Positions 1 through 19,140 of a stretch of 64,000 bases of DNA are shown piece after piece. Below the pieces are notes generated by a model. It did not search any database. It saw nothing but the letters and a program-made list of their open reading frames with translations, and was not told where the DNA came from. This stretch comes from Nitrososphaerales archaeon. Its GTDB lineage: Archaea; Thermoproteota; Nitrososphaeria; Nitrososphaerales; UBA213. A program made the position numbers and the translations under genes. The stretch is taken from NCBI GenBank assembly GCA_965197925.1, contig CBDAOC010000020.1, positions 32,001-96,000 on the forward strand, written 5' to 3'. Each line of letters opens with the position of its first letter. Positions within the stretch are counted from its first letter, which is position 1.

Positions 1-345
1 ACATTTTTCGGGGGGTCGGTAGTCGATACGAAGGACCGAGGTCCCTATAATACATATAGTATATTTTATTGCTTTTAACATCATTAACCACCTTCCCCCT
101 ACTACCACTGGCGTAACATAGGCCTACTACAGATACTTACAACGGCACCAACAGTACAGGCAGGGCATAGTATTCACCATCCAGCAGGACAAGGTGTATG
201 ATATAATGTTATACATCAACGCAATGAACAGCGTCCTGCCAAAACCAGCACGGTGCGAACTACCCAAGCCACCAAGCAGGGATAGCGAGGAGGACAAGGC
301 TTCCAAAATTCAACATCATAACCACATGCTGTATAACACCAACCA

Positions 346-705
346 TTGTCCAGCGACAGGTTGATGGAACTCATACAGGAGAGCAACAGCAACAGGCAGG
401 GCGATAGTTACTACCCAGATCCCATGAGGCAACTCTACTCTTCAATGATAAGCACGGATGCCCTCCCCTTGGCAGTTTTTGAGATAGAGCACATACCGTT
501 ATTGGTTAATGCATTACCACCGAAACTAAAGCACCTTGCAAGAGATTATTATAATCTGTTTATCAGGTCACTAACGGCGACAAGGTCAATCAATGGTGCC
601 TTGATAAAGGAGTTGACACAGACCAAGGTGCGCTATGAGTACGATGACGTAAATGGCAAGAAGGGCATCAACAAGATGTTTGCCCCCAAGGGTGAGAAGG
701 AATAA
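346..705 (+). CDS. Hypothetical protein (element-borne)
   Basis: 119-aa ORF with protein-like composition and no recognised motif. Confidence 0.55.
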   Translation: MSSDRLMELIQESNSNRQGDSYYPDPMRQLYSSMISTDALPLAVFEIEHIPLLVNALPPKLKHLARDYYNLFIRSLTATRSINGALIKELTQTKVRYEYDDVNGKKGINKMFAPKGEKE

Positions 706-764
706 GCATCCAGGCCAAGTGCAGAAAACTCAAATCAAGCGTTAAAGATAACCGAAGGCATATA

Positions 765-1088
765 GTGTTCTGTGAGAATTGCGGGCATCATGCCAGCGTA
801 ACCGAACACAAATGCATGTGCTGTTTCGGCAGGGTCAGACTATACAAAAGAAATAACAGGTGGCTGATAACCATCCTGAACCTCGCTGCAAGACAGTACA
901 AGCGGCAGGCGGAAAGGTTCCTTCTGTTCCCGGAGGACAACATTTCTGTCACGATAGAACGCAAGGGAATCATTTACAAAATTCCAATCAAGATTATCGC
1001 ACTCTGGATGCAGAACCTTCCCCGGCATGAAACCTTGGCTTATGCCTATGACAACATATCAACACAACATATCAACGCTATAATTTAA
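765..1088 (+). CDS. Hypothetical protein with N-terminal Zn-ribbon
   Basis: CENC...CMCC motif at the N-terminus. Confidence 0.55.
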   Translation: MFCENCGHHASVTEHKCMCCFGRVRLYKRNNRWLITILNLAARQYKRQAERFLLFPEDNISVTIERKGIIYKIPIKIIALWMQNLPRHETLAYAYDNISTQHINAII

Positions 1089-1154
1089 TAATATTAGTGT
1101 ACACTTAGTATATATATACTAAATGTATGTCTAATGATCATGGGCAAATAGAAA

Positions 1155-1337
1155 ATGACCGAAGATCCACATACCATAACATTTAGTGATGAGGGAGTTT
1201 TTACAACTACGGAGCAAGACCTAACAGAAGAAGAAAAAGAGCAAATTAGGGAAAGCAGAGAAAATATTGCTAGTGGTAAAGCACGACTGTTCAAAAATGT
1301 CGACGAATACTTAAAATCCCTAGATGAAGATGAATAG
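1155..1337 (+). CDS. Putative antitoxin (RelB-like, acidic)
   Basis: 60 aa, acidic, with the motif 'LTEEEKEQIRESRENIASGKARLFKNVDEYLKSL'; lies directly upstream of a RelE-like gene. Confidence 0.7.
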   Translation: MTEDPHTITFSDEGVFTTTEQDLTEEEKEQIRESRENIASGKARLFKNVDEYLKSLDEDE

Positions 1338-1346
1338 TAGAATTGT

Positions 1347-1634
1347 TTGTCAGATGAATTAGATTGGCAAATTAAAGAGCCGCCAAACATGCGAAAAATA
1401 TTCAAAAGATTAGGAAATCCTGAAAAAAATCAATATCGTACAGCAATTCTCACGCTTACTCAATCTGAGAATCCAAAAAATCTTGGGAATTATAAGAACA
1501 GTCTAGGTTGTTTCACTTATGATATTACAAAATCTTTTAGAATTACATTTAGTATAGATTATGAAAATCGAATTATAAATATCCTAAGCATAGGAGATCA
1601 CAAACAAACCTATGGTAAGGACAAACATCACTAA
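1347..1634 (+). CDS. RelE/ParE-superfamily toxin
   Basis: 95 aa, basic; C-terminal 'FRITFSIDYENRIINILSIGDHKQTY' is typical of RelE-like mRNA interferases. Confidence 0.75.
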   Translation: MSDELDWQIKEPPNMRKIFKRLGNPEKNQYRTAILTLTQSENPKNLGNYKNSLGCFTYDITKSFRITFSIDYENRIINILSIGDHKQTYGKDKHH

Positions 1635-1976
1635 TGGTCAGGGAAAGAACGCTTCTTTCAAGAATTACTATACCTTCGCCTATTCTTGGTTGTAATTAGT
1701 CTCTTGTAGCGAATTTATTTTGACTAGTTTTACCGCTTGATAAATTGCCGAGTTGTGAGATAGCTTCTGAAATTAAATTCAGGAACCCAGAGCGAATGTA
1801 CCATGTACCTAAAATCAAACTACCCGCCAATGGGAGAGTTAGACCCTGACGGAGGAGGCCTCCATCTATGTTTTTCCAGAATCTTCCGCACGTCCGCAAT
1901 CTACCAAGCGTATTTTGTAGCGATGCAGGTGAAAATCTTTGGCAGGATACTGACCAATTTACAAAACACGACATTA

Positions 1977-2291
1977 TTAAAATCGAAAATTAAATACATT
2001 GCCTACACCAAAAGGATCACTCTCACGTGACTGTTGACGCTTTTGTGCTCTGGCATGACTCTGTTTACTGGTTCTTACAGCATGACAATTTGCACATAAT
2101 GCACGCAAATTGCTTGGTTTGTTGTTACTACGATTACCATCAATGTGATCTATGCTGGGTCGTCTTTGTGCATTAAACTCTTCATGACATTCCTTACATT
2201 TGAACTTCTGTCTAACTAAAATATCATATTTCAAACCAGCACTTACACCACGCCTTTTTTTCTGACCAGAAAACCAGGTCAACACAATCAC
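1977..2291 (-). CDS. HNH endonuclease
   Basis: CKEC...IDHIDGNRSNNKPSNLRALCANCH motif. Confidence 0.85.
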   Translation of the reverse strand: MIVLTWFSGQKKRRGVSAGLKYDILVRQKFKCKECHEEFNAQRRPSIDHIDGNRSNNKPSNLRALCANCHAVRTSKQSHARAQKRQQSRESDPFGVGNVFNFRF

Positions 2292-2350
2292 TCATTGAGC
2301 AAATTTCTCTAACACAAACCGTTTAATTTTACCCATATCAATGAATTAAC

Positions 2351-2770
2351 TTAACCTTTGTGCCGCTCTTTCTTGTCTGACACTTTTGCTAATGCTTGGA
2401 GAGGTTTAAACCCAATTTCCACCAATTTTTTATACACTTCAGGAATAGCATAACAAAAACCAATATGCACACATTCTTTCGCCTCATGATACAGGCAATA
2501 TAGATTAGAATTCTTAATTTGGACTTCTATCAAACGATCAAGATTATAATCACGTAGTAAGAGACTATCACCTTCTGGACCAATCCAGCTAATAAACGGT
2601 CCATATCGTGAAAGATAATCACTGTCTTCCAATTTTATCAGTAGATATTCATTTAACCATGTTCCAAATTTTCTATTATCTCTCTTTCTAGTTTTTAATT
2701 CCTCTAACCGTCTTACTACATCCATTCTTAAGCCTACAGGTTTAGCCCCACCCTTGAATGGCATATTCAC
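2351..2770 (-). CDS. Putative transcriptional regulator (RHH-like N-terminus, C-terminal CxxH...CxH metal site)
   Basis: 'KPVGLRMDVVRRLEELK' strand-helix pattern and 'LYCLYHEAKECVHI'; divergent from a small RHH gene. Confidence 0.55.
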   Translation of the reverse strand: MNMPFKGGAKPVGLRMDVVRRLEELKTRKRDNRKFGTWLNEYLLIKLEDSDYLSRYGPFISWIGPEGDSLLLRDYNLDRLIEVQIKNSNLYCLYHEAKECVHIGFCYAIPEVYKKLVEIGFKPLQALAKVSDKKERHKG

Positions 2771-2843
2771 CTAATGTTACCTAATCTATATATATATAAT
2801 TAATCAAAGCCTTAAAATACCTAAGGTAAATATAGGTAACCTA
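2769..2843. promoter_or_regulatory. Divergent promoter region with repeated ACCTA/TAGGT operator-like sites
   Basis: ACCTAAT at 2769 and 2779, palindromes TACCTAAGGTA (2818-2828) and TAGGTAACCTA (2833-2843), and a central (TA)n TATA-like tract. Confidence 0.5.
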
Positions 2844-2846
2844 GTT

Positions 2847-2993
2847 ATGGAAAGTGATGAATTTACGAGTGTTTGTATAAGGCGTAAATACATAAACATT
2901 CTTCGGAGAGTAGCTGACGATAACAAACGTAGTCTCGCCAACCAGTTGGAGATAATTCTTGACGAGGCGTTAGAATTGAAGGTGGAAGCGTGA
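2847..2993 (+). CDS. Small ribbon-helix-helix (Arc/CopG-like) protein; not in the ORF track
   Basis: Translated by hand: MESDEFTSVCIRRKYINILRRVADDNKRSLANQLEIILDEALELKVEA*. Confidence 0.65.
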   Translation: MESDEFTSVCIRRKYINILRRVADDNKRSLANQLEIILDEALELKVEA

Positions 2994-3133
2994 CTACCAA
3001 CACATCAATACATGAGCATAAGATAAGATGCGCTGGATGTAACTTTCACAGTACAATAGAGAAGTGCGACTGCTCGAATTCAACCGATCGTGATTTTTTG
3101 TGCATGGAATGCTGTCAAGGTGAGGGAGTATAA
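2990..3133 (+). CDS. Small Cys-rich (Zn-finger-like) protein; not in the ORF track
   Basis: GTG start overlaps the previous stop (GTGA); 47 aa with CAGC, CDC and CMECC. Confidence 0.5.
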   Translation: MTTNTSIHEHKIRCAGCNFHSTIEKCDCSNSTDRDFLCMECCQGEGV

Positions 3134-3240
3134 GGACTAGATTCGTCTGGGACAAGCAACGTGTAAAGAAACCACAGGATAAACAACAACTACTGCAGCA
3201 AGTCTATGAGCATACGGTCGGCAATCGATCGAAGGGTATC

Positions 3241-4530
3241 ATGCCAAAGAACAGGCAGGAGATTGCAAAGTTGATCAACCGTTCGGAACAGTGGGTATGG
3301 GAACTATGGCAAATGTTGGTCAGGGAAGGCAAGCTACAAAAAGATCCTACAACTGGTCGTCTACTCAGGTCAGAACAGGACAGGAAGCAGATACAATATG
3401 CAGAAATGGCAAGGTCTGAATTTTTACAAATTCCATCAGTCCAGAAATGGTTCAACGACTTGATGACCGCTGGAAAGAACGGCCAGCCAGCGGTATCGGT
3501 TAATCATATGATACAAGGCCTGAACGTCGTATGCAACACGCTGAACATTCACCCTGACGCACTTCTCCAGGATATTGACACAAGCGTTGCCCTGCTAAAG
3601 GAGTTTGAAAGAAGGTTCAAGGCAGGCGAGGCAAGGTACGCACGTCAACTCAATAACATCGATTTCAGTTCCAGGGAGATAACACGTTACACATCATCAA
3701 CCCGTAATTTCATGATTAGGAATGGCATTGCCATTCCACGTGGCATCACGGGCATCATGTCAGGCAAGAAGAAGCGTTTTGGTGCATATGCCAACGTGAA
3801 GCTTACGGACAGGGAGTTTGAACGGGGGCTCAAGTTCATGCGTGGTTATGGCTTTGAGGAATTATTTGGAGTGATGCACGAGGTCTTTCCCAGGACCAAG
3901 ACGGGAATCACGATGGTGAACAAATTCGAGATCAGACCAATCGATGCCAAGGGCGTTCATGGTGAGTACGCAATCATGTCGTTATACGAGTCCAAGACAG
4001 ATCGTGCCTTTGACAAGATGGCAATACATCCCAAGGTGATTGAAATAATCAAGCGTGTGAAGCACGGTGCAACGTTCTGTACTAACGACGTTGGCAGTAA
4101 TGCCCGTGTCATTGCACTGGAGAGCGAGCTTGCATCTGCACTGAGTGATTATTACATATCCCTGGGCAAAATTGACAGGGCGCATTACGACGAGCACAAT
4201 GGCATGCACCAAAAGTGGAATTATCCCAAAGGAACGGATGAATGGTACTGGGCAAACAAGCCCGTATACGTGTTAAGGCACAGCGGGGCGCATGCAGCGA
4301 TGCGGAGGACCGCAAGTAATGCAACCCTTGTAGCATCAATGGGATGGGATGATGTCAACACGCTGTTGAAGGTGTACGCACGCACAACTGCAGAGGCCAT
4401 ACTCATGCAGGACGTTTGTTACTATCACAATCCACCAGAAATTAAGGACGAGAACTACGATTACTTTTGCAGCATGCGGTGCGCTATAGGATATTACCAC
4501 AATGGTTCCGCACCTCATTTGAGGGAGTAG
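3241..4530 (+). CDS. Divergent tyrosine recombinase/integrase with N-terminal HTH
   Basis: N-terminal 'RQEIAKLINRSEQWVWELW' HTH. Catalytic-type motifs FPR, 'YVLRHSGA' and 'MGWDDVNTLLKVY' match the R...xxLRH...GW...Y pattern. Confidence 0.75.
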   Translation: MPKNRQEIAKLINRSEQWVWELWQMLVREGKLQKDPTTGRLLRSEQDRKQIQYAEMARSEFLQIPSVQKWFNDLMTAGKNGQPAVSVNHMIQGLNVVCNTLNIHPDALLQDIDTSVALLKEFERRFKAGEARYARQLNNIDFSSREITRYTSSTRNFMIRNGIAIPRGITGIMSGKKKRFGAYANVKLTDREFERGLKFMRGYGFEELFGVMHEVFPRTKTGITMVNKFEIRPIDAKGVHGEYAIMSLYESKTDRAFDKMAIHPKVIEIIKRVKHGATFCTNDVGSNARVIALESELASALSDYYISLGKIDRAHYDEHNGMHQKWNYPKGTDEWYWANKPVYVLRHSGAHAAMRRTASNATLVASMGWDDVNTLLKVYARTTAEAILMQDVCYYHNPPEIKDENYDYFCSMRCAIGYYHNGSAPHLRE

Positions 4531-4545
4531 ATGCAAGGAAATATC

Positions 4546-5394
4546 AGCTCTGTAGAAACCATACTATATAGACGGTCAGTCATTCTGTGCATATTGTAAG
4601 CAATTACCCTAAATGTTAATTCCCTGTTCTGCATCTTCACCATTCTTGATGCTATATGGTCACCAAACATCCTCTTTACCACAGACAGTCTCATTCTTGT
4701 TTCTTTGATAGTATAGATGTGTATAGAACTTCCTCTTCATTTGCTTCCTATATCTTCCATGCGTTCTCCATATTGGAACATCTTCATATCTAGCTGGTAT
4801 TATACTGACAGCATCAAGTTCTCGTACAAATTCATGATTTGCTTCGCTATCATAACCCTTGTCTGCTACAACTTTAGAGTGGCATTATGTTTGATGCTCT
4901 TTCCATAATGTGTTTAAATTTATGGTATCGTGTTTAGGTGCTTTTTATCTTCAATACAGCTATTGCTCTCTTAATTCAGCACCTATCGATAGCTTGATGT
5001 ACTTCTTCCTTATCCCTGTTCTATCCGTATAGTATGATGATGCATTGCTGGATCTGAATCCGGAAGCGTCTATTCCTACCAACAATTTTCTAATCTTGGT
5101 GAGAAGTATGAATGAGGATGCCATTCTGTACAGCAGGGTGCCATTGATTCCTGAGGCAAACTTCTGGAGCGTTGTATAATGTGGCACCCTGCCTAGCTGC
5201 ATAAACATTCCGGGATGACATGCTTCATGCAACCATTCCACAAACCTTCTGCAGCTCTTCCCTTCATGCTGCCTGAATGCCAGCAGGATGGTATGCTGCC
5301 AGACCGTATGGATGTGGTTGCCCTTCCTGTGCATGTATGGAGGAATTCTGGCCTTCATTACCACATTCAACATAGTTTTGGCAAGTTTGACATA
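4546..5394 (-). mobile_element. IS5-family element remnant (degenerate transposase; 5' end missing)
   Basis: TIR AGCTCTGTAGAAACC at 4546 and the DDE motif 'VGIDASGF'. Homologous to the IS at 54207-55161. Cut at the TCTAGA (Ser-Arg codons) near the transposase start. Confidence 0.85.
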
Positions 5395-5597
5395 TCTAGA
5401 AGAAAATCGGAGGAGGAGAGGTTTGACAATAAATTATCAACGGTTTGACTATATGGACCATAATAATGAGGTATATAACCTAACTTAATTCCAGTCATTT
5501 CACAACAGAAATACATCAATTTTTGTGCAACCGTCTTGCCGTAGATTCTGCCTTGGGAATGTTGAGCAATGCAGAGCAGCATGTCAGAGGCGTCCAT
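5395..5597 (-). pseudogene. N-terminal half of a YwgA/Panacea(DUF4065)-like protein
   Basis: MDASDMLL...GKTVAQKLMYF...HYYGPYSQTV...SDFLL carries the QKLxY and GPYS motifs. It then runs out of frame into IS sequence. Confidence 0.75.
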
Positions 5598-5628
5598 TAC
5601 TTTCAGAGATACGTCGTATGTATATATC

Positions 5629-5768
5629 TTCCTTGTTGCATAACTATGAAATCTATTACTGAATAATGGAATCATTCTATAATTGTGGTGCGAATTTCTG
5701 AATTTAGTTTTTAATTATTTAATCATAAGACGAAAAATTACAGAATTTTTGAGTTGTGCAACAAAGCA
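5629..5768 (+). mobile_element. MITE copy 1 (140 bp)
   Basis: TIRs TTCCTTGTTGCA...TGCAACAAAGCA; homologous to copies at 8615, 16237 and 19001. Confidence 0.85.
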
Positions 5769-5980
5769 CTAAAAGAAGCAACGCGTGGTTTTTGCTGCCA
5801 ATCTTCTTGGGAATTGTCGGCGGCATCATTGCATTCTTTGTCTTGCGACAAGATGATCCTGTAAAGGCAAAAAACTGCCTGTACCTAGGAATTGTGTTGA
5901 TGATAGTGGGCATAGTCTTAAATGTCATCGTTGCTGCATCTTTTCCCGAGTTTGGTGCAGACTTTGATGTGAACATCTAA
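5756..5980 (+). CDS. Small two-TM membrane protein, 5' end replaced by the MITE
   Basis: 'KRSNAWFLLPIFLGIVGGIIAFFVLRQDDPVKAKNCLYLG' resembles a small thaumarchaeal membrane protein family; the GTG start lies inside the MITE TIR. Confidence 0.65.
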   Translation: MQQSTKRSNAWFLLPIFLGIVGGIIAFFVLRQDDPVKAKNCLYLGIVLMIVGIVLNVIVAASFPEFGADFDVNI

Positions 5981-6114
5981 AAAAAATGCGTGTCACTTCA
6001 GACAGCATCTTTAGATCTGCAAATTACTGCAATATGGGCTGATCTCAACGCGCGACTGCAGCTAAGATCTCATGTCTCCAAACACAAATAAAAGACAGAA
6101 GAGAGTTTCCACAG

Positions 6115-6579
6115 ATGGCAAAAAAGACGCTTTATCTTGCAAACCCGTACGGATTCTCTGAACAGCAAAAAGCCGGACCGCTGCAAGATCTTGTAAGGAC
6201 GCTAAATGACCTTGGGGCCAAAGTGTGGGAGCCGTTTGAGCGAAACAACCAGGACAGTGTGTCATCAGCTGACAATCCCTACAAAATCGGCCGTGCTGAC
6301 ATGCAGGATGTCAGGGACGCTGACGGCATCTTTGCAGTTGCCAACGGGACGCCGCCAGATGAGGGCGTAATGGTTGAGCTTGGCATGGCAATTGCATGGG
6401 GCAAGGAGGTCTTTTTGTTCCGTGACGACTTTCGAAGATGCGCTGACAGCAGCATGTATCCGCTCAACCTGATGCTGTTTACAGGCCTGCCAGAAAACGG
6501 CTGGCAAGACTGGTACTATACCAACATAGCCGAGCTTGCAGATCCAGAGAAGGCCTTAGTAAAGTGGCTTAACAAATAA
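6115..6579 (+). CDS. Nucleoside 2-deoxyribosyltransferase-family protein
   Basis: 'LYLANPYGFS', 'DMQDVRDADGIFAV', 'DEGVMVELGMAIAWGK' and 'NLML' motifs. Confidence 0.85.
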   Translation: MAKKTLYLANPYGFSEQQKAGPLQDLVRTLNDLGAKVWEPFERNNQDSVSSADNPYKIGRADMQDVRDADGIFAVANGTPPDEGVMVELGMAIAWGKEVFLFRDDFRRCADSSMYPLNLMLFTGLPENGWQDWYYTNIAELADPEKALVKWLNK

Positions 6580-6913
6580 CCTGCTGCTGTAAAGAAGGCA
6601 GTCACACGGGTTTTGGTAAATTTTGTTTGATCATATTATTAGAATCTGTCAGAACCTGATGATTGCTCAATCCAGAAAAAACCATTTTAGACTTTCTATC
6701 TTTTTAGCATATGACAATATGGCTGTAAAAAGAATCGTTATTGATGTGTCATAGTGGGCCGAAGGTATTTCTAAAAATAAAATAAGAAAATATTCTTCAA
6801 ACTATCCAAGAACAGTCGCAAAAGTTGCTTTGGATGTTGTTGCCAGATCAACTAACAAGCCAACTGCAAAGATGCGGCCATCCTTTAACAGCCTGCCAGA
6901 CAAAATGTCACAA

Positions 6914-7177
6914 CTAGATCATGTTATCCAGGTTATTTTTATCAATTCCCACCACCTCTTTTTTTATCCATGCAGGATTGTTTACGGTAAACACAAGAAC
7001 CGAATCCTCGCCATCCCTTATCAGGCCAGATATTCTGGATTTTAGCTCTGCCAAGTTTGACACAGATATGTCTCCTTCAAAGACCGAATTTTGAATCCAG
7101 TTGAGGTATTGCTTGATTGTTATGCGTACTGCGTCAATACGCTCTGTGCCAATGTCATATGTTACTATGCAATACAT
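6914..7177 (-). CDS. cas2: CRISPR-associated endoribonuclease Cas2
   Basis: 87 aa 'MYCIVTYDIG...YLNWIQNSVFEG...EDSV'; the ATG overlaps the native cas1 stop (TAATG). Confidence 0.92.
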   Translation of the reverse strand: MYCIVTYDIGTERIDAVRITIKQYLNWIQNSVFEGDISVSNLAELKSRISGLIRDGEDSVLVFTVNNPAWIKKEVVGIDKNNLDNMI

Positions 7178-8176
7178 TATCTCTGTCTGAATCCGACATA
7201 GTGTGCATCCTCCACAATGTGCTTGACTATCTTGTGGCATTCCATCCTCAACAGTCGCCTGTAACTCACATTTTTTTTCAGCGGAGACGTAGACGGTACT
7301 GTCGTAGACGGTACTGTCCAGTCTTTCATCATACTCTTTGACAAACGTCTTTCTCCCAGATTCTCCAAGATAGCAACCATTCATAGAGTCATCAAAATCT
7401 CCAGAGTCAAGCAACCTGCTGTTTACGATCTTAAATATTGCCTTATCCACGATTACAGGTTTGAACACCTCAGCTATGTCCAAAGATAATGAAAATCTTC
7501 TGTATCCAGGCTCGTGCAGATAGCTTACGGTAGGATCCAACTGTGAGTGATATATCTCAGTTACGGCGCTTCCATACATCATGCTGTTTCCAAACGATAT
7601 CAGCGAGTTAAGCATGTTTTGTGGTGGCATCCTGGTTCTTTTTTCCATCTTAAAGTCATCCCGCAGAAAACTGTCAAATAAATCATAGTATATGTTCCTG
7701 CAGTTTCCCTCTATTCCCATCAGCTCATCAACCTTACTACATGATGGTATCTGCCGTTGCAGCTGCTGTATTTTTTCAATGTGGACAGAGACATCCTTTT
7801 TCTTTGATTTGTAATAGCGCAGGTTTGCAAGCATGTTGTGCGTAGCTGCACGTATGAATTCAGATGCAAGATACATTCTTTTTTGTTGATTCAGATAATG
7901 CTGTACCTGCCGTACTGTCACCAGACCAGACAGGAGCTTCTCACGTGGGTAGTAGCTTCCAGCATAATTTCCATAATAGTTGTAAAAATGTATCACAATC
8001 CCCTTTGTGTTTAAAAAAATTATCAGCGCCGAATTAAAATCGCATTGTCCAAATACGTGAAGTGCCCTGACATTCATTACCGGTATTGATTTTTTCTCAT
8101 CGTCAGCAGATATTATCTGTATGGTGTTTTGAGTACGCTTGACTCTTCCTCCCTTGAATATGTAGTAATCGTTCAT
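7177..8176 (-). CDS. cas1: Cas1 (type I-B-like), frameshifted near the 3' end so that it reads into cas2
   Basis: 'ELMGIEG', 'NSLISFGNS', 'SYLHEP' and 'SLSLDIAEVFKP' motifs. The native C-terminus (KKNVSYRRLLRMECHKIVKHI) is in another frame after a tandem duplication at 7288-7318. Confidence 0.9.
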
Positions 8177-8643
8177 GACCAGCAGTACTCCGCATAGGCG
8201 CATTTGTCGCATATTGTCTTATATTCTGCAGCTTGAGGCTTTTTCTCAGAGATTATCTTGGCAGCGTCACGAATTACATTATCCAAAAAGACCTGTTTCT
8301 GTTTTGTCAGGACTACCTTTACCGTTTTTTTCAGTTTTGGATAGTTGAGTATGCCAGTTGTCTTTATTCCTAGTTTTTTGAGATGGTAGATGTAGTAGAG
8401 CAGCTGATATGCATGGGCATCATGAATCTTGTCGGACTTTTTGACCTCATGTATTACTCCCTTGTCAATATGGTCTATTGATATGTCTCCTATCCGGATG
8501 TTTTTTTTCTTTCTCTTAAAAGAGTCTTTGTCTATAAGACTGCCAATTTTTACCAGATCAGAGCTTGACTCAAAGGCAATGTTATGCGAGGACAGCCAGA
8601 GTTTTCTCTTGCACTGCTTTGTTGCACAACTAAAATGCTGCAA
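8173..8643 (-). CDS. cas4: Cas4, native N-terminus replaced by MITE sequence
   Basis: CKRKLWL, 'IDHID...HEVKKS', 'QLLYY' and C-terminal CDKCAYAEYCW; the stop overlaps the cas1 ATG. Confidence 0.9.
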   Translation of the reverse strand: MQHFSCATKQCKRKLWLSSHNIAFESSSDLVKIGSLIDKDSFKRKKKNIRIGDISIDHIDKGVIHEVKKSDKIHDAHAYQLLYYIYHLKKLGIKTTGILNYPKLKKTVKVVLTKQKQVFLDNVIRDAAKIISEKKPQAAEYKTICDKCAYAEYCWS

Positions 8644-8752
8644 TTTTTTGTCTTACGGCTAGATAATTGAAGATGCAGTCCGGGGATTCGCACCGCAATG
8701 ACAGAATAATTTCGTTATTCAGTAATGGATTTCATGGTTATGCAACAGGGCA
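8615..8752 (-). mobile_element. MITE copy 2 (138 bp, inverted)
   Basis: TGCTTTGTTGCA...TGCAACAGGGCA; closest to copy 3. Confidence 0.85.
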
Positions 8753-8768
8753 CAGTTATTATGCCTCA

Positions 8769-10097
8769 TCATTTGTGCAAGGTACTGGTGATCTTGAATC
8801 GTTTTTCGATGTATTGTTTGACACCCTCACGTTTTCCTTCGGGACAAAATACGTAGAATTTTCTTAAAGGTGCCGAGGATGCGGAAATCTCTCCTTCATC
8901 CTCAAAGAAAGAAGCGGAACCGTCACGTTTCTTCAATAATATAGGCAGTTCATTTTTCTCCGCAAGGTGTTCATAGGGTGTGTATAGTTTGTTTTCCAAT
9001 TTTTGGATATGAACAATTATATGATCTGGATCAATTTTCACTGATCGGGCAATATCCTTTTCCAATTCCAATTTTGACTCGGCGCTCATTTTTATTATCT
9101 TATCTCTAACAGTTCCGTCCTTGATTTCGTCCTTGAATATTCGTACTCCAAACCCCCTTTTCAGTAATCTCCTATTCATGATGTCGTTAATCATTTTTTG
9201 TGAATTTCCTTTTCCATTTCGAGCAATTTCTAGCATGATTGAGGCATCGTCCAATGAATAATAATATTTAAGAAATGCATCAAAGTTCTTCTTCTTTGTA
9301 GGAATTTTTAATTTAGATTTTGGAATTGTTCCATCGGAGACGGCCAACTGAAATGCTCGTAAAAACATGTCATCAGCAACAAGTCGTGTGTGGTGTTCAT
9401 ATACCTGTGTATACATGGAATAGCGTGCCAGCCTATAACCTTCTACCGCTTCTTTTCCTTTATCCGTAATTGCTATATGATGTCCGTCTTCAGTATTAGC
9501 AAGATTTCTAACGATTCTTTCAAGATCGAAAAAACCATAGAATGCGCCAGTATGGTAGGAATCCCTTCTTAGGTAATCAATCTTATCAGCATCAAGATTG
9601 CTAGAAATTATCTCTAGTAGTAGAGAATTGCACTTTTTTCCAAGTGCATTAATCACCAGTTTCTTTAAACCACCTATACCTTTGCTGAATTCAACGTCGG
9701 CATCAATGATAAATTGACTTAAGATTTCATGAGAAAAATTATTTCCGTTAATTTTCCTCATTGGAATTTCAAAAAGATGGGAAAAAGGCCCATGTCCGAC
9801 ATCATGCAGCAAAGCCATCATTCGAACGACCGTCCTGCTCTCATCATCCAAATGTAAAACACGGGCAATTCTGTCAGCTACATGAAGAGTTCCTAGTGAA
9901 TGTTCAAACCTTGCATGAACTGCACTTGGATAGACAACATAAGTATGGGACAGTTGCTTAATCCTAGATAATCTCTGAAATGCCTTTGTTTGAATAACAT
10001 TAACTTCTTGCCTGGTTAATCCAACGAATCCATATAAAGGATCGCGAACAAGCAGGAATTCCCATTTGTCATCATCCTGAACGTGTTTTCTTGTCAA
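8769..10097 (-). CDS. HD-domain phosphohydrolase (SAMHD1/YwfO-like putative dNTPase)
   Basis: 'RDPLYG', 'FQRLSRIKQL', 'HARFEHSLG', 'LLHDVGHGPFSHLFE' and 'DADKIDYLRRDS' motifs. Confidence 0.9.
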   Translation of the reverse strand: MTRKHVQDDDKWEFLLVRDPLYGFVGLTRQEVNVIQTKAFQRLSRIKQLSHTYVVYPSAVHARFEHSLGTLHVADRIARVLHLDDESRTVVRMMALLHDVGHGPFSHLFEIPMRKINGNNFSHEILSQFIIDADVEFSKGIGGLKKLVINALGKKCNSLLLEIISSNLDADKIDYLRRDSYHTGAFYGFFDLERIVRNLANTEDGHHIAITDKGKEAVEGYRLARYSMYTQVYEHHTRLVADDMFLRAFQLAVSDGTIPKSKLKIPTKKKNFDAFLKYYYSLDDASIMLEIARNGKGNSQKMINDIMNRRLLKRGFGVRIFKDEIKDGTVRDKIIKMSAESKLELEKDIARSVKIDPDHIIVHIQKLENKLYTPYEHLAEKNELPILLKKRDGSASFFEDEGEISASSAPLRKFYVFCPEGKREGVKQYIEKRFKITSTLHK

Positions 10098-10419
10098 GAC
10101 CTAGTGCCTCAAGAAGTTTGGAAGCAGTACGTAATGAATTTCTGGATCATTTCCATCCGAGATTCTTCGCAGATCTACTGATGTCTCTATAACTGGATGA
10201 CTTTTCTCTTTTTACAATATAGTTAACTTTGGCAGCGGTGGAAAGTATTTCAGGATCGAGATCTGCGATACGTTTGCATTCATCTACTACTTGGGAAATT
10301 TTCTCATGGAGGTTCGGATAGTTATGCGCCGCACGATTCGCAATAGCTTTACCGTCCTCTGTCAGGGTATACTTGTACATCATTCTCTCCCTATTGGTCA
10401 ACAATCTTTCTTCTAGAAG
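10072..10419 (-). pseudogene. C-terminal half of the YwgA/Panacea-like protein
   Basis: LLEERLLTNRERMMYKYTLTEDGK...ILSTAAKVNY...LGWK. A probable further frameshift near 10150 hides the tail DPENSLRTASKLLEALGL, which overlaps the HD start. Confidence 0.7.
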
Positions 10420-10505
10420 GCGATACAGCAGATTAAAACTATTTTTGAAGACATTCTGCTAATGTAACCAAAACAGTGTGATTTTTAGCAAAACTAAATC
10501 TGTAT

Positions 10506-11204
10506 ATGTTTGTAATTCAGCATACTCTAAAAGTCAAAGACAACTTTAATTATATGGCACAACGACAAATATTTATGGCTTCTAACAAATTTGTGTTTCA
10601 ATGTCCACATTGTAAGGCAAAGTCAACATTTACTTTGATACATAGTATAAGACGAGGACGACGTAGCTATGCTATTCAAAATTGTGATAGTTGTGATAGT
10701 GTTATATTTTTTACCTATGAAACCGATAAAGAACTACCCACTATAATGTTAGAGATTTCGCCAGAATTTTTACATAATAATTATAAAATAATCGATTATT
10801 ACCCTAAACGCTCATACGAAGCACATGAAGCAATACCGTTAAATGTTGCAGAAGACTACATTGAAGCATTACGGTGCTTCGATAATAATGCGTTTAAAGC
10901 CACGGTCGTAATGGCTAGAAGGGCCTTACAAACTACTTGTAATCTTAAAGGTGCTACAAAATCTACACTAGAACAACAGGTAGACGAAATAATACCTGAA
11001 GATATGAAAGAACTAGCGCATGAAATTCGCCAGTGGGGTAACTTAGGAGCACACCCAGACCAAATTATAAAAGACATTATAGACGAAGACGCTGAAAAGA
11101 TTATAGACTTTGCTGAAATGCTGTTTAAACATTTCTTCATCTTACCTTATGAAGTGCAACAAATAAAGAATAAAAGAAATATGAAGAAAGATTCTAAATC
11201 TTGA
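10506..11204 (+). CDS. DUF4145 (HEPN-like) domain protein with N-terminal Zn-ribbon
   Basis: CPHC...CDSC; 'DYIEALRC...ATVVMARRALQ...HEIRQWGNLGAH' (RxxGNxxAH). The true start may be at 10554 or 10575. Confidence 0.85.
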   Translation: MFVIQHTLKVKDNFNYMAQRQIFMASNKFVFQCPHCKAKSTFTLIHSIRRGRRSYAIQNCDSCDSVIFFTYETDKELPTIMLEISPEFLHNNYKIIDYYPKRSYEAHEAIPLNVAEDYIEALRCFDNNAFKATVVMARRALQTTCNLKGATKSTLEQQVDEIIPEDMKELAHEIRQWGNLGAHPDQIIKDIIDEDAEKIIDFAEMLFKHFFILPYEVQQIKNKRNMKKDSKS

Positions 11205-11224
11205 ACAACTTGCGAAGTCATCTT

Positions 11225-11975
11225 AACTCTCCAATGCATTATGGATGCCGCTGGATGCAGAAATCCCATAACGTTTCCGGTAATCCTTCATAGCGTATTG
11301 CCAATCTAACCCCCTCTCCCTTTAGCCATGCGAAGAGCCTCCCAACATATGTTCTGCTCCTTTTGGACGTATTTTCGTCCGACTAACCGTTTCCAAATTT
11401 CTTCTTTGTTAGCAGTCCAGCTATCTTGGCTTTTATCTTATGCAATGAAAGATATGTTTCTACAAAGAATGAATCTCATGCTTTGTCATCTTCAGGTTTA
11501 GTTATCAGTTTATGGAAAGCAGGTATGTTCTTGCAAAGAACGGATCGCATGCTTTATAGGCATAAGCCTCAGGTCTACTTGGTCTTGCACCCGTCCTGAT
11601 TCTTGCGTCCTTCATGACTGGAATGAGCTTTCCGGTATCATGCTCATTCGCCGGACCCAGCAAGATAGATAAGGGAAGGGAATCGCCGTTGACGGCGGCA
11701 CCTTGCTTCCTGATACTTCTTGTTTCCATCATATCCTGCCATCTCTCCTTTCTGGCAGCAACATCACTGCTATCAATAACGGCTACCCTCATCTTCAATT
11801 TACCGGTAATGGATCATAGCTTACTACCGCATCCAATCTCTTCCATATCCCCAATTTTTTCAGCCTTCTGCTAGCTGCAGAATCATCACCGTACTTCTTT
11901 GGCAAATAATCCATCCATCGACATCCCGTTGTCAATATATGCCGTTGATTGTCATCCCATCCCGTCATTTGCTCT
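11225..11975 (-). pseudogene. Degenerate IS5-family transposase remnants (probably two abutting fragments)
   Basis: 'AVIDSSDVAA', 'PLSILLGPANEHD', 'YAYKACD' and 'RLAIRYE' fragments in several frames; boundaries approximate. Confidence 0.7.
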
Positions 11976-12066
11976 ACGCCTACCCGTCCTTGACTTGGAG
12001 GTTATCGTAACCAAGATAAAGAAGAGTCTAAATTCCAACACACGATATCTTGTGATTCCTACAGCT

Positions 12067-12351
12067 ATGACGCAAGATTCCCAGTATCCGTTTCACGAAG
12101 AGGAGGAAGTCATAACAGTCGACTCTGAAAAGAAGCAGTTAATAATTCGGTCTGCAAAGGTAAAAACTGCGATAGAGCTTCAAAACGAAGACGTCAAAGG
12201 AAGAAGTAGGATGGAAAGACTTCCAAATTTCTTCAACATGGTTACTAACATTGGAAGGACGGAGGTCACCCTCAGTTTGATGGAGAAACAAGATATTACC
12301 ATAGAACTGATCAACAAGGGAGGGGAGAAGGGCACGATTAGACAAAAATGA
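12067..12351 (+). CDS. Hypothetical protein
   Basis: 94-aa ORF from the ATG at 12067; the upstream part of the listed ORF overlaps the IS remnant. Confidence 0.5.
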   Translation: MTQDSQYPFHEEEEVITVDSEKKQLIIRSAKVKTAIELQNEDVKGRSRMERLPNFFNMVTNIGRTEVTLSLMEKQDITIELINKGGEKGTIRQK

Positions 12352-12564
12352 AATAATCGTTACCTGCCTTTTCCAGTGTTTCATCGATTTTCACAAGCAA
12401 TGATGCGAACGGCAGAGTATCATATGAAGAATAACAAAACGTTAAGGAAGGCCGTACGTAACAGTCCCGATATAAACTTAAGAATCTGGCGGTATGCGGC
12501 TGATGGATTTCTGTTCAATAGAAGGTTGCTTTTAACCAGTGTTAAAAATCTGTTGCCCAGTAGA

Positions 12565-14484
12565 CTAAATCTCTTGTTCAGAAAGGGCTTTGATTACAGG
12601 ATTTTCTTGCGGTCCACGTTTAAGTACATGATCAAAGTACTCCTTGTATAGATCTTTGGCTCTTCTTAAGACGAAATTCCAATCCCAAACGTAGATCCTA
12701 CTCTGCTTCAATGTTTTTTTGAACTCAGACTGCTTATTATCAACAGCGGAAACAATAATCACTCCCTCTACATTCATTTTGTGTCGGGGATCATTAGTTG
12801 TATTAGCATATTCTCTCAGAAAATGCACGTAGTCGGAAATCTGAGTGAGCTCCCTTTTACCAGCTTTGTCTCCCGGTCTTTTTATTTCTACAACCCGTGC
12901 TTCGTTAGGCGACTGCAAGCAAAAGAAATCTGGTTCAAGACCACCTTCCTTCTGTCCGCTAGGTTTAATATGATATTCCTCCGTCAATAGTTTATCAAGT
13001 TGAGGTTCATGCCTGAATTGATCCCACCCTGGTTCAATAAGCCAAGGATGACTCGAGCAATTCGTGCATGTCTGGTTTCTCCTTTGCCTCTTCATTCAGT
13101 AGTTTTTCAAATTTTTCAATTATCTTAACCCGTCCCTTAATCACTATGGAAAGGCAAATTGCATCCACTATGCTCCAATCGGAAACTATTTGGAAGATTT
13201 TTTTCATATCTTCTGGCGACACCAAATTGATTTGACGAATCAAATCTAGCAAATGCTTGTTTTGAGTAACATCTACCATGAAGGTAGCAAAGTCTACAAC
13301 CTCGTCCTCAGTAAGAGTGGGAATGCGTGAAAACCTGTCAACGGCTTCTTTCACATGTTCCTGAATACCTTCGGGTAGCGTTAAAATTGACTTTTGGATC
13401 CGATCATCTTTATTTACTTTGTTCAAGTTGAGTTCGTGACGGATATCTGACCATCTTGCAAGATACTTTTTTACCTTGTTAACCCCTCATTCTTTCAGCG
13501 GCTCCCCCAACTCATGAGACCATGTTACGCTGGCTCTGTCAGTTACTATGAGATCATGTTCGTCGTCCAGAAAGTCAGCCATAATCTCTCCTATCATATA
13601 CCGCATACCCAGCTGTCCAGTTGCACCGCCCACTAGATCGAAAAACCACGGCGTTTGAGCGATCTTCCCCCTGACCAAAACGCTGATCCCTATAGCATCT
13701 TCGTCTGGAATCGGTTTTTCCGTAAAACCTATCCACCATCTAACTTCTTTGCCACCGATTCTTTCGATTCCCCATCCGTCTTGAATTTTTATCCTTTCTT
13801 TTTCATCCTGTTCGTCGGGAAATAGAACTTGAAGCGGCATATCCATTTTTCTGAGTTCCTTATCATTGATCATGACTTTGAAACTATCCGACATTAATGA
13901 GAACCGTCTCTGCATGCTCTTCATGAATTGTTCTTCGTTCACTGTGCGACTGAGTTTGATGTCTTCAAGAATTATGGAAGTATTGTTTTTTTCAGACGTC
14001 TTTTCATCCTCTAGAATCTCGGGATAATATTCTCCGCCAAACTGCTTTTCCTGTATATCGTTGAAACTCATTTTGAAGGCAGTAACTTTACCGTTCTTCA
14101 CTGTTCGTACTGTTACGTCGTTAGCAATTCCAAATCCAGCTAGTTTGCCTATTCCTTTATGAGCTAGACGTAGGCGACCAATCGCAGTTGTGTTTCCGTC
14201 CTCCGCGCGACCGTTTCTGCCCAAGACTAGGTATTTGCTGTCACAATCGTCAAAAGTCATTCCAACCCATTATCATTTACGATGATCTTGGTGCTGGAAT
14301 TGAACTTTTGTTCAAATGGAAAAGATACCTCAACTCTGGTCGCATCAGCATCCCATGCGTTAGCAATGAGTTCTGCGATGGCGGGCACAGCCCCTGAATA
14401 CATTTGCAATCCCAGATGTTTGACCAGTCCTCCCGCAAATTTCATTGTAAGAACTCTGGCAATTTGGTTCTCCAAAGTACACAT
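12565..14484 (-). pseudogene. GHKL (MORC/HATPase_c_3-like) ATPase fused to a C-terminal PD-(D/E)xK nuclease, inactivated
   Basis: 'ELIANAWDADA', 'DNG.GM', 'HKGIGKLA' and C-terminal 'PDFF...VVEIKRP'. Frameshift near 14265, in-frame TGA at 13487-13489, frameshift near 13050. Confidence 0.8.
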
Positions 14485-14535
14485 GATCGGGGATAGTTCT
14501 ATATAATATTGCCCTTAATGTTAGTAGAGCCTTTC

Positions 14536-14958
14536 TTGATCGACGTATTTTCAAAAGGAAAACGCAGTGAGATAATGAGCAAGATCCGAAGCAAAGGAAC
14601 GAAGCTCGATATTACGATGATGAATATGCTTTCGGAAGCAAACTTGCCTTACGAACTTTATCCGCAGCTCTGTGGAAGCCCAGACTTTCTGGTAGGTCAT
14701 ATAGTAATTTTTTGCGACAGCTCTTTTTGGCACGGTAAGAACTGGAACAAATTAAAAAAGAAACTAGCTAAGGGAAACAACCCTAGCTATTGGGTCTCGC
14801 ACATAGCTAAGAACAGAAGAAGAGACAGGGTCGTATCAGGACTATTGAAGACCGAGGGTTATGGCGTACTACGATTCTGGGACGACGAAATCTACAAACA
14901 CCAAGAGCGATGTGTTGCAGCGATCAAAAAAGAACTCAAATCGTCATGCTCGCAATAA
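14536..14958 (+). CDS. vsr: Very-short-patch repair endonuclease
   Basis: 'DVFSKGKRSEIMSKIRSKGTK', 'GSPDF', 'FCDSSFWHG' and 'VLRFWD' motifs. Confidence 0.9.
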   Translation: MIDVFSKGKRSEIMSKIRSKGTKLDITMMNMLSEANLPYELYPQLCGSPDFLVGHIVIFCDSSFWHGKNWNKLKKKLAKGNNPSYWVSHIAKNRRRDRVVSGLLKTEGYGVLRFWDDEIYKHQERCVAAIKKELKSSCSQ

Positions 14959-16016
14959 TTGGGTAACTTTCAACGCGATCCTCTCAGCCAGAATTACTGG
15001 AACGCCGTCTCCTATCATGGCTCCTATCTCTTCTCTGGTGCCGCTTAACTGATAGTCGTCGGGAATTGTCTGCAATCTAGCAGCTTCACGAGTTGTTATG
15101 GCACGGTCTTGTTCTGGGTGCAAGAACCTGCCGCAGCTCGGCGTTAAGCATCTACTGGTTATCGTTGGAGAAGGCTTGTCCCACCACATCCGTCCGTAGA
15201 CAGATTCGGCGCCCCCGACCCGTAGCGCTTTGTGACAGGGCAGCCAAAGCTTGGGCGGAAGTTCCCTTCTACTGCCTCCGTTCTTGGGAATGTTTCTTAT
15301 TATTTTCATCACTTTCTCTCCGTGTTTGCGTGCCACGTGAAAAGGATCTGTAGGATCGGACTCGCCAGCTTTCAATTTTGGAAGATCGCCGATGACATCT
15401 CTTACAGTTTTTGGAAAGGTTTTTTTCTTATTATTTTGAGCATCCGAGTCTTTTTCAGGAACAGACGGAATCGCGTTAACTTTTTTCTTGCAGGAGAAGG
15501 CAAGTAATCTTCGCCTATTTTGGGGAACGCCATAGTCGGCGGCATTGACAACGCCGTAAACCGTTTCGTAACCGCAACGCCGCATCTTTCTGAGATATCG
15601 TTCAAAAAACATTCTGCCCGGTCCTTCAAACATCCAGAACACGTTTTCAAACACGACTACTTGAGGACGCATCTCTTCCACGCGTCTAGCGAAATCCATC
15701 ACATATTTGCTCCTTGAATCAGTAGACGGTCTTATTCCACGCGTCTCAGAAAGTTTGCTAAATGACTGGCAAGGCGGGCATCCTATTAAGCAAAAGTTCT
15801 CCTTCCTTTTCAATCCAGCTACGGAAAGAATTTCTTCCCCACTAATTTTTGACACGTCTTCTTCGATCGGTCGCACTCCTAGTTTTTAGCGTAGTTTTCG
15901 CACCTGCAATGGTTTATCTCCACCGCAGCTGCGATTTTGAATCCAGCCCGCTTAAAACCCAGCGATGCACATCCGATCCCTGCAAAAAGATCAATCACGG
16001 GAAACCTCTCTATCAT
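14944..16016 (-). pseudogene. dcm: C5-cytosine DNA methyltransferase with a single frameshift
   Basis: 'DLFAGIG', 'GCPPCQSFS', 'ENV', 'YGVPQNRRR' and 'REAARLQT' motifs; the frame breaks at an A5 run (15883-15887). Confidence 0.85.
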
Positions 16017-16236
16017 CGCATCAACTCTTAATTTACCATATGGTTGAAGGAGAGCATTCAAGACTATTTGATGTCAGTACAACTTCCGCGTTTAAAACCT
16101 TTCCTTGTCGTTTAATTGTGAAAACCTAACTCATTTTGAACGTCTTTTTTTTTATCATCGCAACAGCTTCGTTATAGATCTTTTGCTAACTCTCCAAATT
16201 GTTTTTATTTTCTTACATACTCCGTTAGGATATTTG

Positions 16237-16374
16237 TGCCTTGTTGCATAGCCATGAAATCCATTATCGGATAACGAAATTATTCTGTCATTGCGGTGCG
16301 AATCCCCGGACTGCATTTTCAATTATCCAGCCATGAGGCAAAAAATTGCAGGATTTTAGTTGTGCAGCAAGGCA
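16237..16374 (+). mobile_element. MITE copy 3 (138 bp)
   Basis: TGCCTTGTTGCA...TGCAGCAAGGCA. Confidence 0.85.
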
Positions 16375-16433
16375 TGTACGTACTAATTCCTAAAGATAAA
16401 TCCAGGAATATTGCGGTTGAAAATATAGATTAT

Positions 16434-17927: not shown

Positions 17928-18624
17928 CTACATTTCATTAAATTATATCTGAACAGATAAAGCTTATGGGATTACCTTCCCCAGCCCCCAAAGAACCCAA
18001 TACGGCCTGACCATTTCCGAAGGGGTCGACAAGAAAATTAATGGTGGCATTGGAACACGGGGTTTCGTCCCAGGATGCCATTAAAACAATGAATAACTTG
18101 ATTTCTAGCACTTTGAAAAAGGAACCAAGAAGATTGGATGAAGTAATGGGAGATGATGTTTTACTTGGACTTCCCCGCTAGGAGACCGATAGGTTCCCTA
18201 ATAGGCGGGCAATCAGAATTGTACAGAAGATTGGGTTACGAATTAGACAAACTAAAAATGGGTTTGCCTTGTGAATAATCCCAATCAACAAAAATATAAT
18301 AAAAAACCAGATATGGTCATGTAGCAGAAAACGGCCCATGATGTTGACGTTATTTGATATTTCTGCCGGGGCCTTTTTAAATTAGTCATAGTATGTAGCA
18401 TGATGTGAAGAGGCAAGAAAGGTGTTCATGACAGAATTCTGGATTCAATTAACAATCATAAATCGACACAAACCCTGATGAATTCCGGTGGTAGATAATC
18501 AGTCAGCCAAACTCTTTCATTCCCAACATAGAACTTTATCTATGATCAAGTGCTTCTTGTCGGCAACATGGATCTTCATAGGAGCAGGTTTATGATCATT
18601 GGTATTTTCAGGTACAAACCTTGG

Positions 18625-18925
18625 TTATAACAATCCCGGGTCTTCTATCAAATCTCTAACCATGTGTCTGTGACAAGGACGGCTATCTTTTTCATAACAA
18701 AGCAAGGTTATGTTTTGCAGTGTGCTTTTTGTATGTAGTGCATAAATTGCCTCCACCGTCCATGTTCTCTCTCAATTCAGACAGTAATGCGGTCTTAAAA
18801 TCATCCCAATTAATTTCAGTATTCTTGTATCTTTTTAGGAGCTCGGCACCTGGAGCTAGTGGCCTTACCCAGACATCATATTTTTCTAGCTTGACACCTC
18901 TTGGGTAAAATCGTGTAATCAACAC
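18625..18925 (-). pseudogene. DUF488/YeaO-like protein, frameshifted
   Basis: 'LITRFYPRGVK...YDVWVRPLAPGAELL'; 'LLCYEK...CHRH' continues in another frame. Confidence 0.7.
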
Positions 18926-19000
18926 CTGGCTCTGGCAACAACTGGTTTTTTTACGTGCTTTTGAAATACCCCCGAGGACACATATTTTTTGCCTTTACAA

Positions 19001-19140
19001 TGCTTTGTTGCATAACTATGAAATCTATTACTGAATAATGAAATCATTCTGTTATTGTGGTGCGAATCTCTAGATTACATTTTCAATTACTTAACCATAA
19101 GACGAAAAATTACAGAGTTTTTGAGTTGTGCAACAAAGCA
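19001..19140 (+). mobile_element. MITE copy 4 (140 bp)
   Basis: TGCTTTGTTGCA...TGCAACAAAGCA; closest to copy 1. Confidence 0.85.

Follow-up and report, generated by a model that had tools for sequence, protein, structure and literature searches.

The subject of this report is a segment of about 5 kb, at positions 5395-10419, in a 64,000-nucleotide stretch of a Nitrososphaerales archaeon genome (here called the window; GenBank assembly GCA_965197925.1, contig CBDAOC010000020.1, C20 below, positions 32,001 to 96,000 of the forward strand). The segment is probably an integrated circle made by a tyrosine recombinase, which we regard as the best reading of the data. A gene similar to YwgA is split between its two ends, and both junctions fall on the same hexanucleotide, TCTAGA. 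The main new result is that TCTAGA is the crossover core of the element family to which the neighboring recombinase belongs in this genome. The split is defined by the following features:

5395..5402, no strand, left core TCTAGAAG
5395..5597, minus strand, N-terminal half of the YwgA-like gene, 67 aa, translation MDASDMLL...SSDFLL
5598..5630, minus strand, upstream region with a predicted TATA-like GATATATACATA 20-31 nt before the ATG
10072..10419, minus strand, C-terminal half of the YwgA-like gene, with an in-frame TGA at 10147-10149 and a residual frame on to 10075
10412..10419, no strand, right core TCTAGAAG

The two cores read TCTAGAAG on the plus strand and form an 8-bp direct repeat that bounds the segment. 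Taken by itself, the 8-mer lacks significance (5 occurrences in the window versus 2.4 expected, a number that 10 of 100 shuffles reach). Read from 10419 to 10150 on the minus strand, the C-terminal half encodes LLEERLLTNRERMMYKYTLTEDGK... (LLEERLLTN...). Using tblastn, we found a full-length paralogue in the window's own genome, on contig C17, as a 196-aa open reading frame (ORF) overlapping the start of a 441-aa HD-domain gene. Residues 5-66 of the N-terminal half match C17:110455-110640 and residues 3-89 of the C-terminal half match C17:110644-110910. The halves are therefore collinear on the paralogue with one codon between them, as expected if the shared LL is counted once.

The same picture emerges from an alignment of 25 rows, which comprises the paralogue, the two halves and 22 of 28 homologues. 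L017, L026, L030, L031 and L036 were left out as near-duplicates of kept rows, and L039 because its ORF call was too long. The N-terminal half ends at column 99 and the C-terminal half starts at column 97, which corresponds to the LL overlap. The YwgA-like gene is split in permuted order with no loss or gain, and is collinear with 23 full-length relatives (the paralogue and 22 homologues), all of which align without a gap. The first-pass annotation of this DNA had proposed the permuted halves and the repeat, and had expected the rejoined protein to align with full-length homologues next to HD genes; both points are borne out.

The genomic context of the homologues was analyzed in 29 loci that surround the best-matching HD homologues in a set of 401 genomes, all of the same class. 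An HD match was found in 362 of the 401 genomes, a tally that counts five unpublished genomes, from which none of the 29 loci derives. In all but one of the 29 loci, the gene immediately upstream of HD is YwgA-like: at this position the paralogue matches a gene in 28, the N-terminal half in 27 and the C-terminal half in 22. Genes for Cas4, Cas1, nucleoside 2-deoxyribosyltransferase (NDT), integrase or DUF4145 were not found within 1.5 kb of the HD homologue in any of the 29 loci. HD homologues elsewhere are at most 48% identical. The second pair of YwgA-like and HD genes on C17, which is intact and has an HD protein with 44% identity, is probably a resident copy.

The label 'YwgA/Panacea-like', which stems from the first-pass annotation, is only weakly supported. 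A profile of the alignment matches PDB 7yk3_B (deposited as DNA ADP-ribosyl glycohydrolase) with an E-value of 6.7e-6, limited to profile positions 20-66, the N-terminal QKLxYF...YYGP part, and there is a sub-threshold NCBIfam DarG match (30 bits versus a cut-off of 250). However, a Pfam match (E <= 0.01) was found for none of the 25 members.

When the halves are overlapped on the 8 bp, the deduced rejoined sequence is TTTCTTCTAGAAGAAA, and the rejoined site, TTTCT-TCTAGA-AGAAA, is a perfect 16-bp palindrome. As the first-pass annotation had pointed out, this palindrome is present at neither end alone. It is also absent from the assembly. Such sites are rare, with palindromes extending for at least 5 pairs at only 2 of ~909 genomic TCTAGA sites outside insertion sequence (IS) copies.

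In order to confirm the two junctions, we compared Logan contigs of four public runs (X1-X4) over positions 2500-13500. A contig of 1735 bp (9902-11636), free of differences in X2, X3 and X4 (runs from two studies), spans the right junction. The left junction is spanned by a 290-bp unitig (5371-5660) in X2 and X4, and the first 31-mer of this unitig already crosses from the IS on the left into the gene. Relative to the assembly, the X2-X4 contigs lack 15 bp at 7288, so these runs are not simply the assembly's own reads. The 15 bp are a tandem duplication (7288-7318, DSTVY twice) in the linker between the Cas1 and Cas2 parts of a frame inside the segment.

A mis-assembly at a repeat could be suspected, since the left IS has a 100% identical copy elsewhere (window 4300-5400 equals C20:1017365-1016265, in opposite orientation) and the left-junction unitig has only 24-30 letters on the IS side. 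The unitig is short there because it ends at the repeat. As contigs of three runs from two studies carry the junctions, we give next to no credence to an artefact. A wrong join beyond the left side of the IS is conceivable in principle; that the split gene itself is an artefact is excluded.

The TCTAGA core was then studied at the level of the genome. The neighboring recombinase gene (3241-4530) has five copies, four of them full and one cut by an IS. In the five neighborhoods, homology starts 3.2-3.5 kb upstream of the gene, exactly at TCTAGAAG (four cases) or TCTAGAAT (one case), and four different left flanks are found among the five elements. A survey of all 690 TCTAGAA sites revealed few recurring arms, which combine freely at the core. 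Two left arms ('A' and 'B') are parts of a single IS5-family element of ~1.05 kb ('ISM1'), with the terminal inverted repeat (TIR) AGAGCCTATCC and a 3-bp TNA duplication; a reading of the two arms as ends of different elements was therefore rejected. ISM1 is abundant, with >100 matches in the genome.

Intact ISM1 copies carry ACAGATCTAGATCTGT, a perfect 18-bp palindrome (AACAGA-TCTAGA-TCTGTT, AACAGATCTAGATCTGTT), 54 bp from one end. The palindrome is intact in 42 cases. In another 18, other DNA breaks in exactly at the core and leaves a right half (11 cases) or a left half (7 cases). One end of the interrupting DNA ('x') leads to the recombinase gene. The other end ('y') is an arm of 85-125 bp with a TATA-like box and a gene start, and was found 13 times. 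An element of 9.9 kb (C19:418971-428847) lies inside a single ISM1 copy, with outer TTA duplications on both sides, while one of 12.2 kb (C20:1009231-1021395) lies in a non-IS TCTAGA site. The element family favors the ISM1 palindrome, which is perfect and centered on TCTAGA, but also uses other TCTAGA sites. The inferred attP (T-TCTAGA-AG) and the IS target (A-TCTAGA-T) have no more than the six bases in common. TCTAGA is not depleted in the genome (951 observed versus 1000 expected); an origin by restriction and ligation at an XbaI-like site was rejected, since without depletion nothing supports such an enzyme.

The 5-kb unit is located inside an element of ~20 kb (window -229 to 19901), the left end of which consists of an IS half, TCTAGAAG and x. 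The left ISM1 half occupies window -1234 to -229 (C20:30771-31771). Outside the unit, the element is organized as follows:

1..4546, plus strand, left part of the ~20-kb element, which begins at window -229 (C20:31771); homology to four other copies starts at the core
3241..4530, plus strand, 429-aa divergent tyrosine recombinase, putative integrase of the element family
4547..5394, minus strand, IS5-family IS ('IS948'), cut at its own internal TCTAGA, with an NF033579 transposase match
10420..19900, no strand, remaining cargo: DUF4145 gene (10506-11204), IS fragments, split HATPase_c_3 gene, Vsr, C5 DNA methylase and tetratricopeptide repeat (TPR) protein, ending with the ~85-125-bp right-end arm
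19901..19963, no strand, right end of the element: y', TTCTAGA core, then the last ~54 bp of ISM1

The recombinase gene is apparently intact, and the 5-kb unit starts 865 bp after it. The protein itself has no match in Pfam, NCBIfam or PDB sequences. A profile of the protein and six close relatives detects 179 cluster representatives at E <= 0.001. Among 54 homologues that were scanned, two distant ones pass the threshold of PF00589 (Phage_integrase), P0118 with 42 bits and P0151 with 34 bits, and a third stays below it. The matches of P0118 and P0151 fall in the aligned C-terminal region, and many of the 54 homologues carry an N-terminal winged helix. Language-model (atlas) features place the recombinase next to Phage_integrase clusters, with a score of 0.96.

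In an alignment of 44 sequences of the family, K252, R346 and Y379 never vary, and R218, H347 and W369 are each conserved in 90% or more. The distances of 23 residues from R346 to W369 and of 10 residues from W369 to Y379 are those of the R-H/W-Y motif of XerD, and the catalytic roles of the residues, assigned after XerD and lambda Int, are presumably the same. These data place the family among the tyrosine recombinases, and the 3241-4530 protein is taken as a putative, divergent member. The first-pass annotation had drawn attention to this gene, 0.9 kb away, and to the fit between short cores and tyrosine recombinases. It remains the best candidate in view of the invariant K, R and Y and the TCTAGA core of its own element family.

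At the left junction, TCTAGA is native to both sequences that meet, IS948 and the YwgA-like gene. The full IS948 has 948 bp and the TIR GGCTCTGTAGAAACCAT; natively it reads ...GACATATCTAGACTCTTTCATGC..., and the 17 other long copies go on with CTCTTTCATGC... past the site. The window copy has lost its last 94 bp, including one terminal repeat. The left junction is a join between two TCTAGA sites, not an IS end. As IS948 is cut 94 bp inside its end, models that derive the 8-bp repeat from a target duplication, or that invoke a cointegrate or a composite transposon, all fail; for IS-mediated events, an IS is also missing at 10420. The left junction, GACATA-TCTAGA-AGAAAA, agrees with the attL of the enclosing element, AACAGA-TCTAGA-AGACAT, at 8 of 10 inner flank positions. 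Since both junctions lie at the family core, the left one resembles attL and the rare palindrome has the same center, the unit is tied to the recombinase family. From this, we infer that an enzyme of the family made the two junctions.

The internal gene order and an intact YwgA-like gene cannot coexist in one linear copy, so the 5017-bp unit must once have been circular or tandem. The first-pass annotation had described a 5017-bp circle opened in the gene. A circular or tandem form is indeed required, but the present arrangement did not arise in a clean single event. The unit contains the following features between the two gene halves:

5631..5769, no strand, dispersed repeat of ~140 bp resembling a miniature inverted-repeat transposable element (MITE), with many genome copies of 78-94% identity
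5756..5980, plus strand, ORF for a small membrane protein, 74 aa
6115..6579, plus strand, NDT-like gene, PF05014 with E 1.7e-25
6914..8212, minus strand, Cas1 (type I-B) and Cas2 in a single frame of 432 aa, PF01867 and PF09827; TIGR03641 with 391 bits versus a cut-off of 304
8173..8643, minus strand, Cas4, PF01930 with E 1.6e-47
8615..8754, no strand, second copy of the MITE-like repeat, inverted
8769..10097, minus strand, HD-domain phosphohydrolase, 442 aa, dGTPase-like, intact, PF01966 and PF19276; dGTPase models sub-threshold

The HD protein matches its homologues over the full length. Besides the cas1 gene of the unit, the genome yielded only a single weak cas1 match (30%), on C17. At C18:164619-164779, C19:7562-7722 and C1:1-284, CRISPR-like arrays that are very short (3-5 repeats; GTTTCAATCCTTGTTATTATGG...) adjoin IS copies. 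Base composition is uninformative on the unit, and an inverted repeat at the unit ends was not found among the 25 longest pairs. The MITE, of which dozens of copies are spread over the genome, is present in inverted copies inside the unit. Two contig joints on opposite strands (5714/8692 and 8754/13500) were considered as evidence for an inversion and rejected, as they involve the multi-copy MITE and have short sides; they probably derive from other MITE copies.

The order with NDT next to cas2-cas1 is not confined to the window. Run X1, from a third study, holds only 5767-8100 (membrane-protein ORF, NDT, cas2 and most of cas1), with ~99% identity and unlike sequence on both sides. One boundary of this block is at the MITE edge and the other inside cas1. 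There is no TCTAGA between NDT and cas2.

We propose the following series of events for the integrated circle. The 5017-bp DNA would have existed as a circle or tandem unit, in which HD, cas4 and cas1-cas2 followed an uninterrupted YwgA-like gene. The circle may have formed by recombination between flanking repeats; the MITE at 5631-5769 lies exactly where the similarity to X1 ends, which would suit such an origin. The circle would then have been opened at the TCTAGA inside the YwgA-like gene and joined into the resident ~20-kb element by site-specific recombination. The enzyme was likely the element's own recombinase (3241-4530), although any of the four paralogues of this enzyme may have served as well. 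If the circle entered at the internal site of the IS, a further exchange at this core, amounting to a deletion, would have removed the 94-bp IS tail together with whatever lay between this tail and 10420. Alternatively, the IS may have been truncated earlier.

Several observations weigh against this reading. The left flank is an internally cut IS, so that the target was not a clean attB, and the flanks give no intact target. The right flank, AGGCGATACAG, matches the attB half at 0 of 6 positions, has no clear likeness to an element end and is unique in the genome. The missing 94-bp IS948 tail is not found at 10420, nor was an orphan tail at TCTAGA detected among 41 short genome matches. As the right flank is not att-like and the IS tail is gone, a single clean integration is excluded, and at least two events, or a pre-existing deletion, are needed. 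The first-pass annotation had already cautioned that the site was not a clean attB split, and rightly so. At the level of the ~20-kb element, the IS halves at -1234 and 19963 have unlike outer duplications of 3 bp (TAA versus AAA), and the two ISM1 halves may not be from one copy.

Other points against it concern the unit and the enzyme. No recombinase or replication gene was recognized in the 5-kb unit, and no second intact copy of the unit was found. Close relatives of the unit were detected neither among 40 relatives nor in scans of metagenome_contigs and genome_contigs with the HD protein, and plasmid records gave only an 81-bp cas1 match. An empty site is present neither in the assembly nor among the contig joints of the four runs. 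Also missing among these joints is one linking ~10411 back to ~5403; as contigs drop rare variants, this speaks only against a prominent circle or tandem form in the four runs. The structure model of the recombinase is too poor to use (pLDDT 42.8).

Some of these points could also be explained by illegitimate recombination without a dedicated recombinase. The unit would have been tandemly duplicated or looped out, and two microhomology joins or deletions would both have used TCTAGA(AG). The genome is very rich in IS and MITE copies (>100 matches to the ~1.05-kb IS and 18 long copies of the 948-bp IS), TCTAGA is common with its 951 sites, and the right flank lacks att features. The region has also undergone other rearrangements. 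Copies at C15:73487-74813 and C20:1-1239, 97% identical to window 8614-9931 (MITE and the C-terminal 387 HD codons), are truncated, broken by stop codons and end without TCTAGA. Moreover, the 1.1-kb tract at 4300-5400 is 100% identical to its counterpart at C20:1016265-1017365, but identity to this copy drops to ~95% in the adjoining 2985-4300, which suggests recent gene conversion ending at the breakpoint. Nevertheless, we consider an illegitimate origin rather unlikely. Neither junction has lost any of the 8 bp, a pattern more in keeping with a staggered or conservative exchange than with end joining. In this genome, at least 18 further boundaries between elements and IS fall exactly on this 6-bp core. 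Chance joins would also have to account for the attL-like left junction and for a rejoined site that is a rare palindrome.

The integrated circle does not appear to be active. The first-pass annotation had suggested a reversible element, the excision of which would restore the gene and supply a promoter to HD-cas4-cas1-cas2 as an excision-dependent switch. All five genes are co-oriented, the circle would place the TATA-like GATATATACATA (5617-5628), a possible archaeal promoter, in front of them, and an apparently intact recombinase gene is close by. However, we judge a switch to be very improbable. The C-terminal half of the YwgA-like gene is interrupted by an in-frame TGA (10147-10149), which the assembly shares with contigs from three runs; what the first-pass annotation took for a probable frameshift around 10150 is in fact this stop codon. 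Beyond it, the frame continues with SRNSLRTASKLLEALGLDKKTRSG, which matches the C-termini of homologues (..LL..L.L). Neither the circle joint nor the rejoined palindrome nor an empty form was seen, and a MITE sits between HD and cas4. The arrangement is identical in three runs of two studies. Summed contig depths, which are not copy numbers, are ~22-32 over the unit and ~12-39 over the flank, with no hint of extra copies. The insertion appears to be fixed now and the split gene to be decaying.

Three further observations concern the cargo of the ~20-kb element. A ParE-like toxin-antitoxin cassette, with a weak ParE_toxin match, is located at 1080-1768 and is 99% identical to C17:117474-118163. 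The C17 cassette abuts a half of the IS palindrome at ...GCTTCT/AGATCTG (the slash marks the joint), while the window reads ...GCTTCTGAAATT, and the cassette may be a second cargo piece joined at the core. A defense-type cluster at 13487-16061 contains a HATPase_c_3 gene that falls into two ORFs, the gene for a Vsr endonuclease, and a C5 cytosine methylase gene broken at 15876/15879. The gene for a 497-aa protein with TPR repeats includes, at 16598-17118, a tandem repeat of 102 bp (5.1 copies, 96% matches).

The unit shares features with several known systems. Casposons are characterized by Cas1 together with PolB, terminal inverted repeats and a target duplication. The unit resembles them in having a Cas1 gene on mobile DNA flanked by short direct repeats. 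A casposon was rejected nonetheless, as the Cas1 is a CRISPR protein of type I-B accompanied by Cas2 and Cas4, no PolB was seen among the ORFs, and the ends are gene halves and not inverted repeats. Cargo-only units mobilized by the integrase of a neighbor are known from tandem accretion, cis-mobilizable elements and tycheposon satellites. The present unit likewise has no integrase of its own and is bounded by the core of an adjacent integrase-bearing element, but its boundaries are pseudo-sites (one of them inside an IS) and not regular att sites.

The closest parallel to the split gene is found in the archaeal 'suicidal' integrases of the SSV, pTN3 and pT26-2 type. According to the sections of PMC8371274 that deal with them, the att site lies inside the element's own integrase gene, which is split upon integration. 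In both cases the N- and C-terminal parts end up permuted, one at either end of the integrated DNA, and the gene becomes whole again once these ends are joined. As far as those sections go, the split gene is the integrase and the known hosts are hyperthermophiles, whereas here the split gene is YwgA-like and the recombinase ORF is whole, outside the unit and without a Pfam match of its own (no PF16795). A suicidal module of the SSV type was therefore rejected, as the split gene aligns with YwgA-like proteins next to HD genes and not with integrases. The abstract of the same review describes rearrangement of host genomes by low-specificity recombination of archaeal integrases, with the pTN3 integrase as the case in point. 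The likeness would lie in a tyrosine recombinase that acts on short non-canonical sequences and causes rearrangements; the present core is a 6-bp palindrome.

Integrated elements of Thaumarchaeota use tRNA genes, intergenic regions and gene 3' ends as targets and include tandem and nested integrations, as described in main-text passages of Krupovic et al. (2019, PMC6563490). They share with the present element a tyrosine recombinase, defense-type cargo, tandem integrations and IS nested in elements. An IS palindrome as target or a TCTAGA core is not mentioned in these main-text passages. A non-exhaustive search of the literature, supplementary tables aside, brought to light no account of TCTAGA as a core, or of a palindrome within an IS as a target.

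A broader hypothesis is that the elements form an active capture system. A recombinase branch that needs little beyond TCTAGA, with the IS palindrome as a landing pad, would pick up circles devoid of promoter or integrase, in an integron-like fashion. Here it would have captured a CRISPR adaptation module with the HD/YwgA-like pair, and the toxin-antitoxin cassette would perhaps be a second case. Of an integron-like platform, which would have an integrase beside a primary site and an array of cassettes with structured recombination sites, only a shared core and varied DNA ends at the IS palindrome were seen. We regard such a system as decidedly unlikely, though less so than the switch.

Together, we rate the finding as ordinary in principle; what is new is the unannotated recombinase branch, the minimal palindromic core and the captured CRISPR adaptation module. 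The split gene becomes a testable system, consisting of a recombinase family missed by standard annotation, a 6-bp core and an 18-bp palindromic target with ~40 intact copies per genome. If the enzyme truly works on so short a site, it would provide a compact recombinase/site pair for study and would account for some of the extensive rearrangement seen in this genome. Such an activity would also show how defense genes, a CRISPR adaptation module among them, travel as cargo from one element to another.

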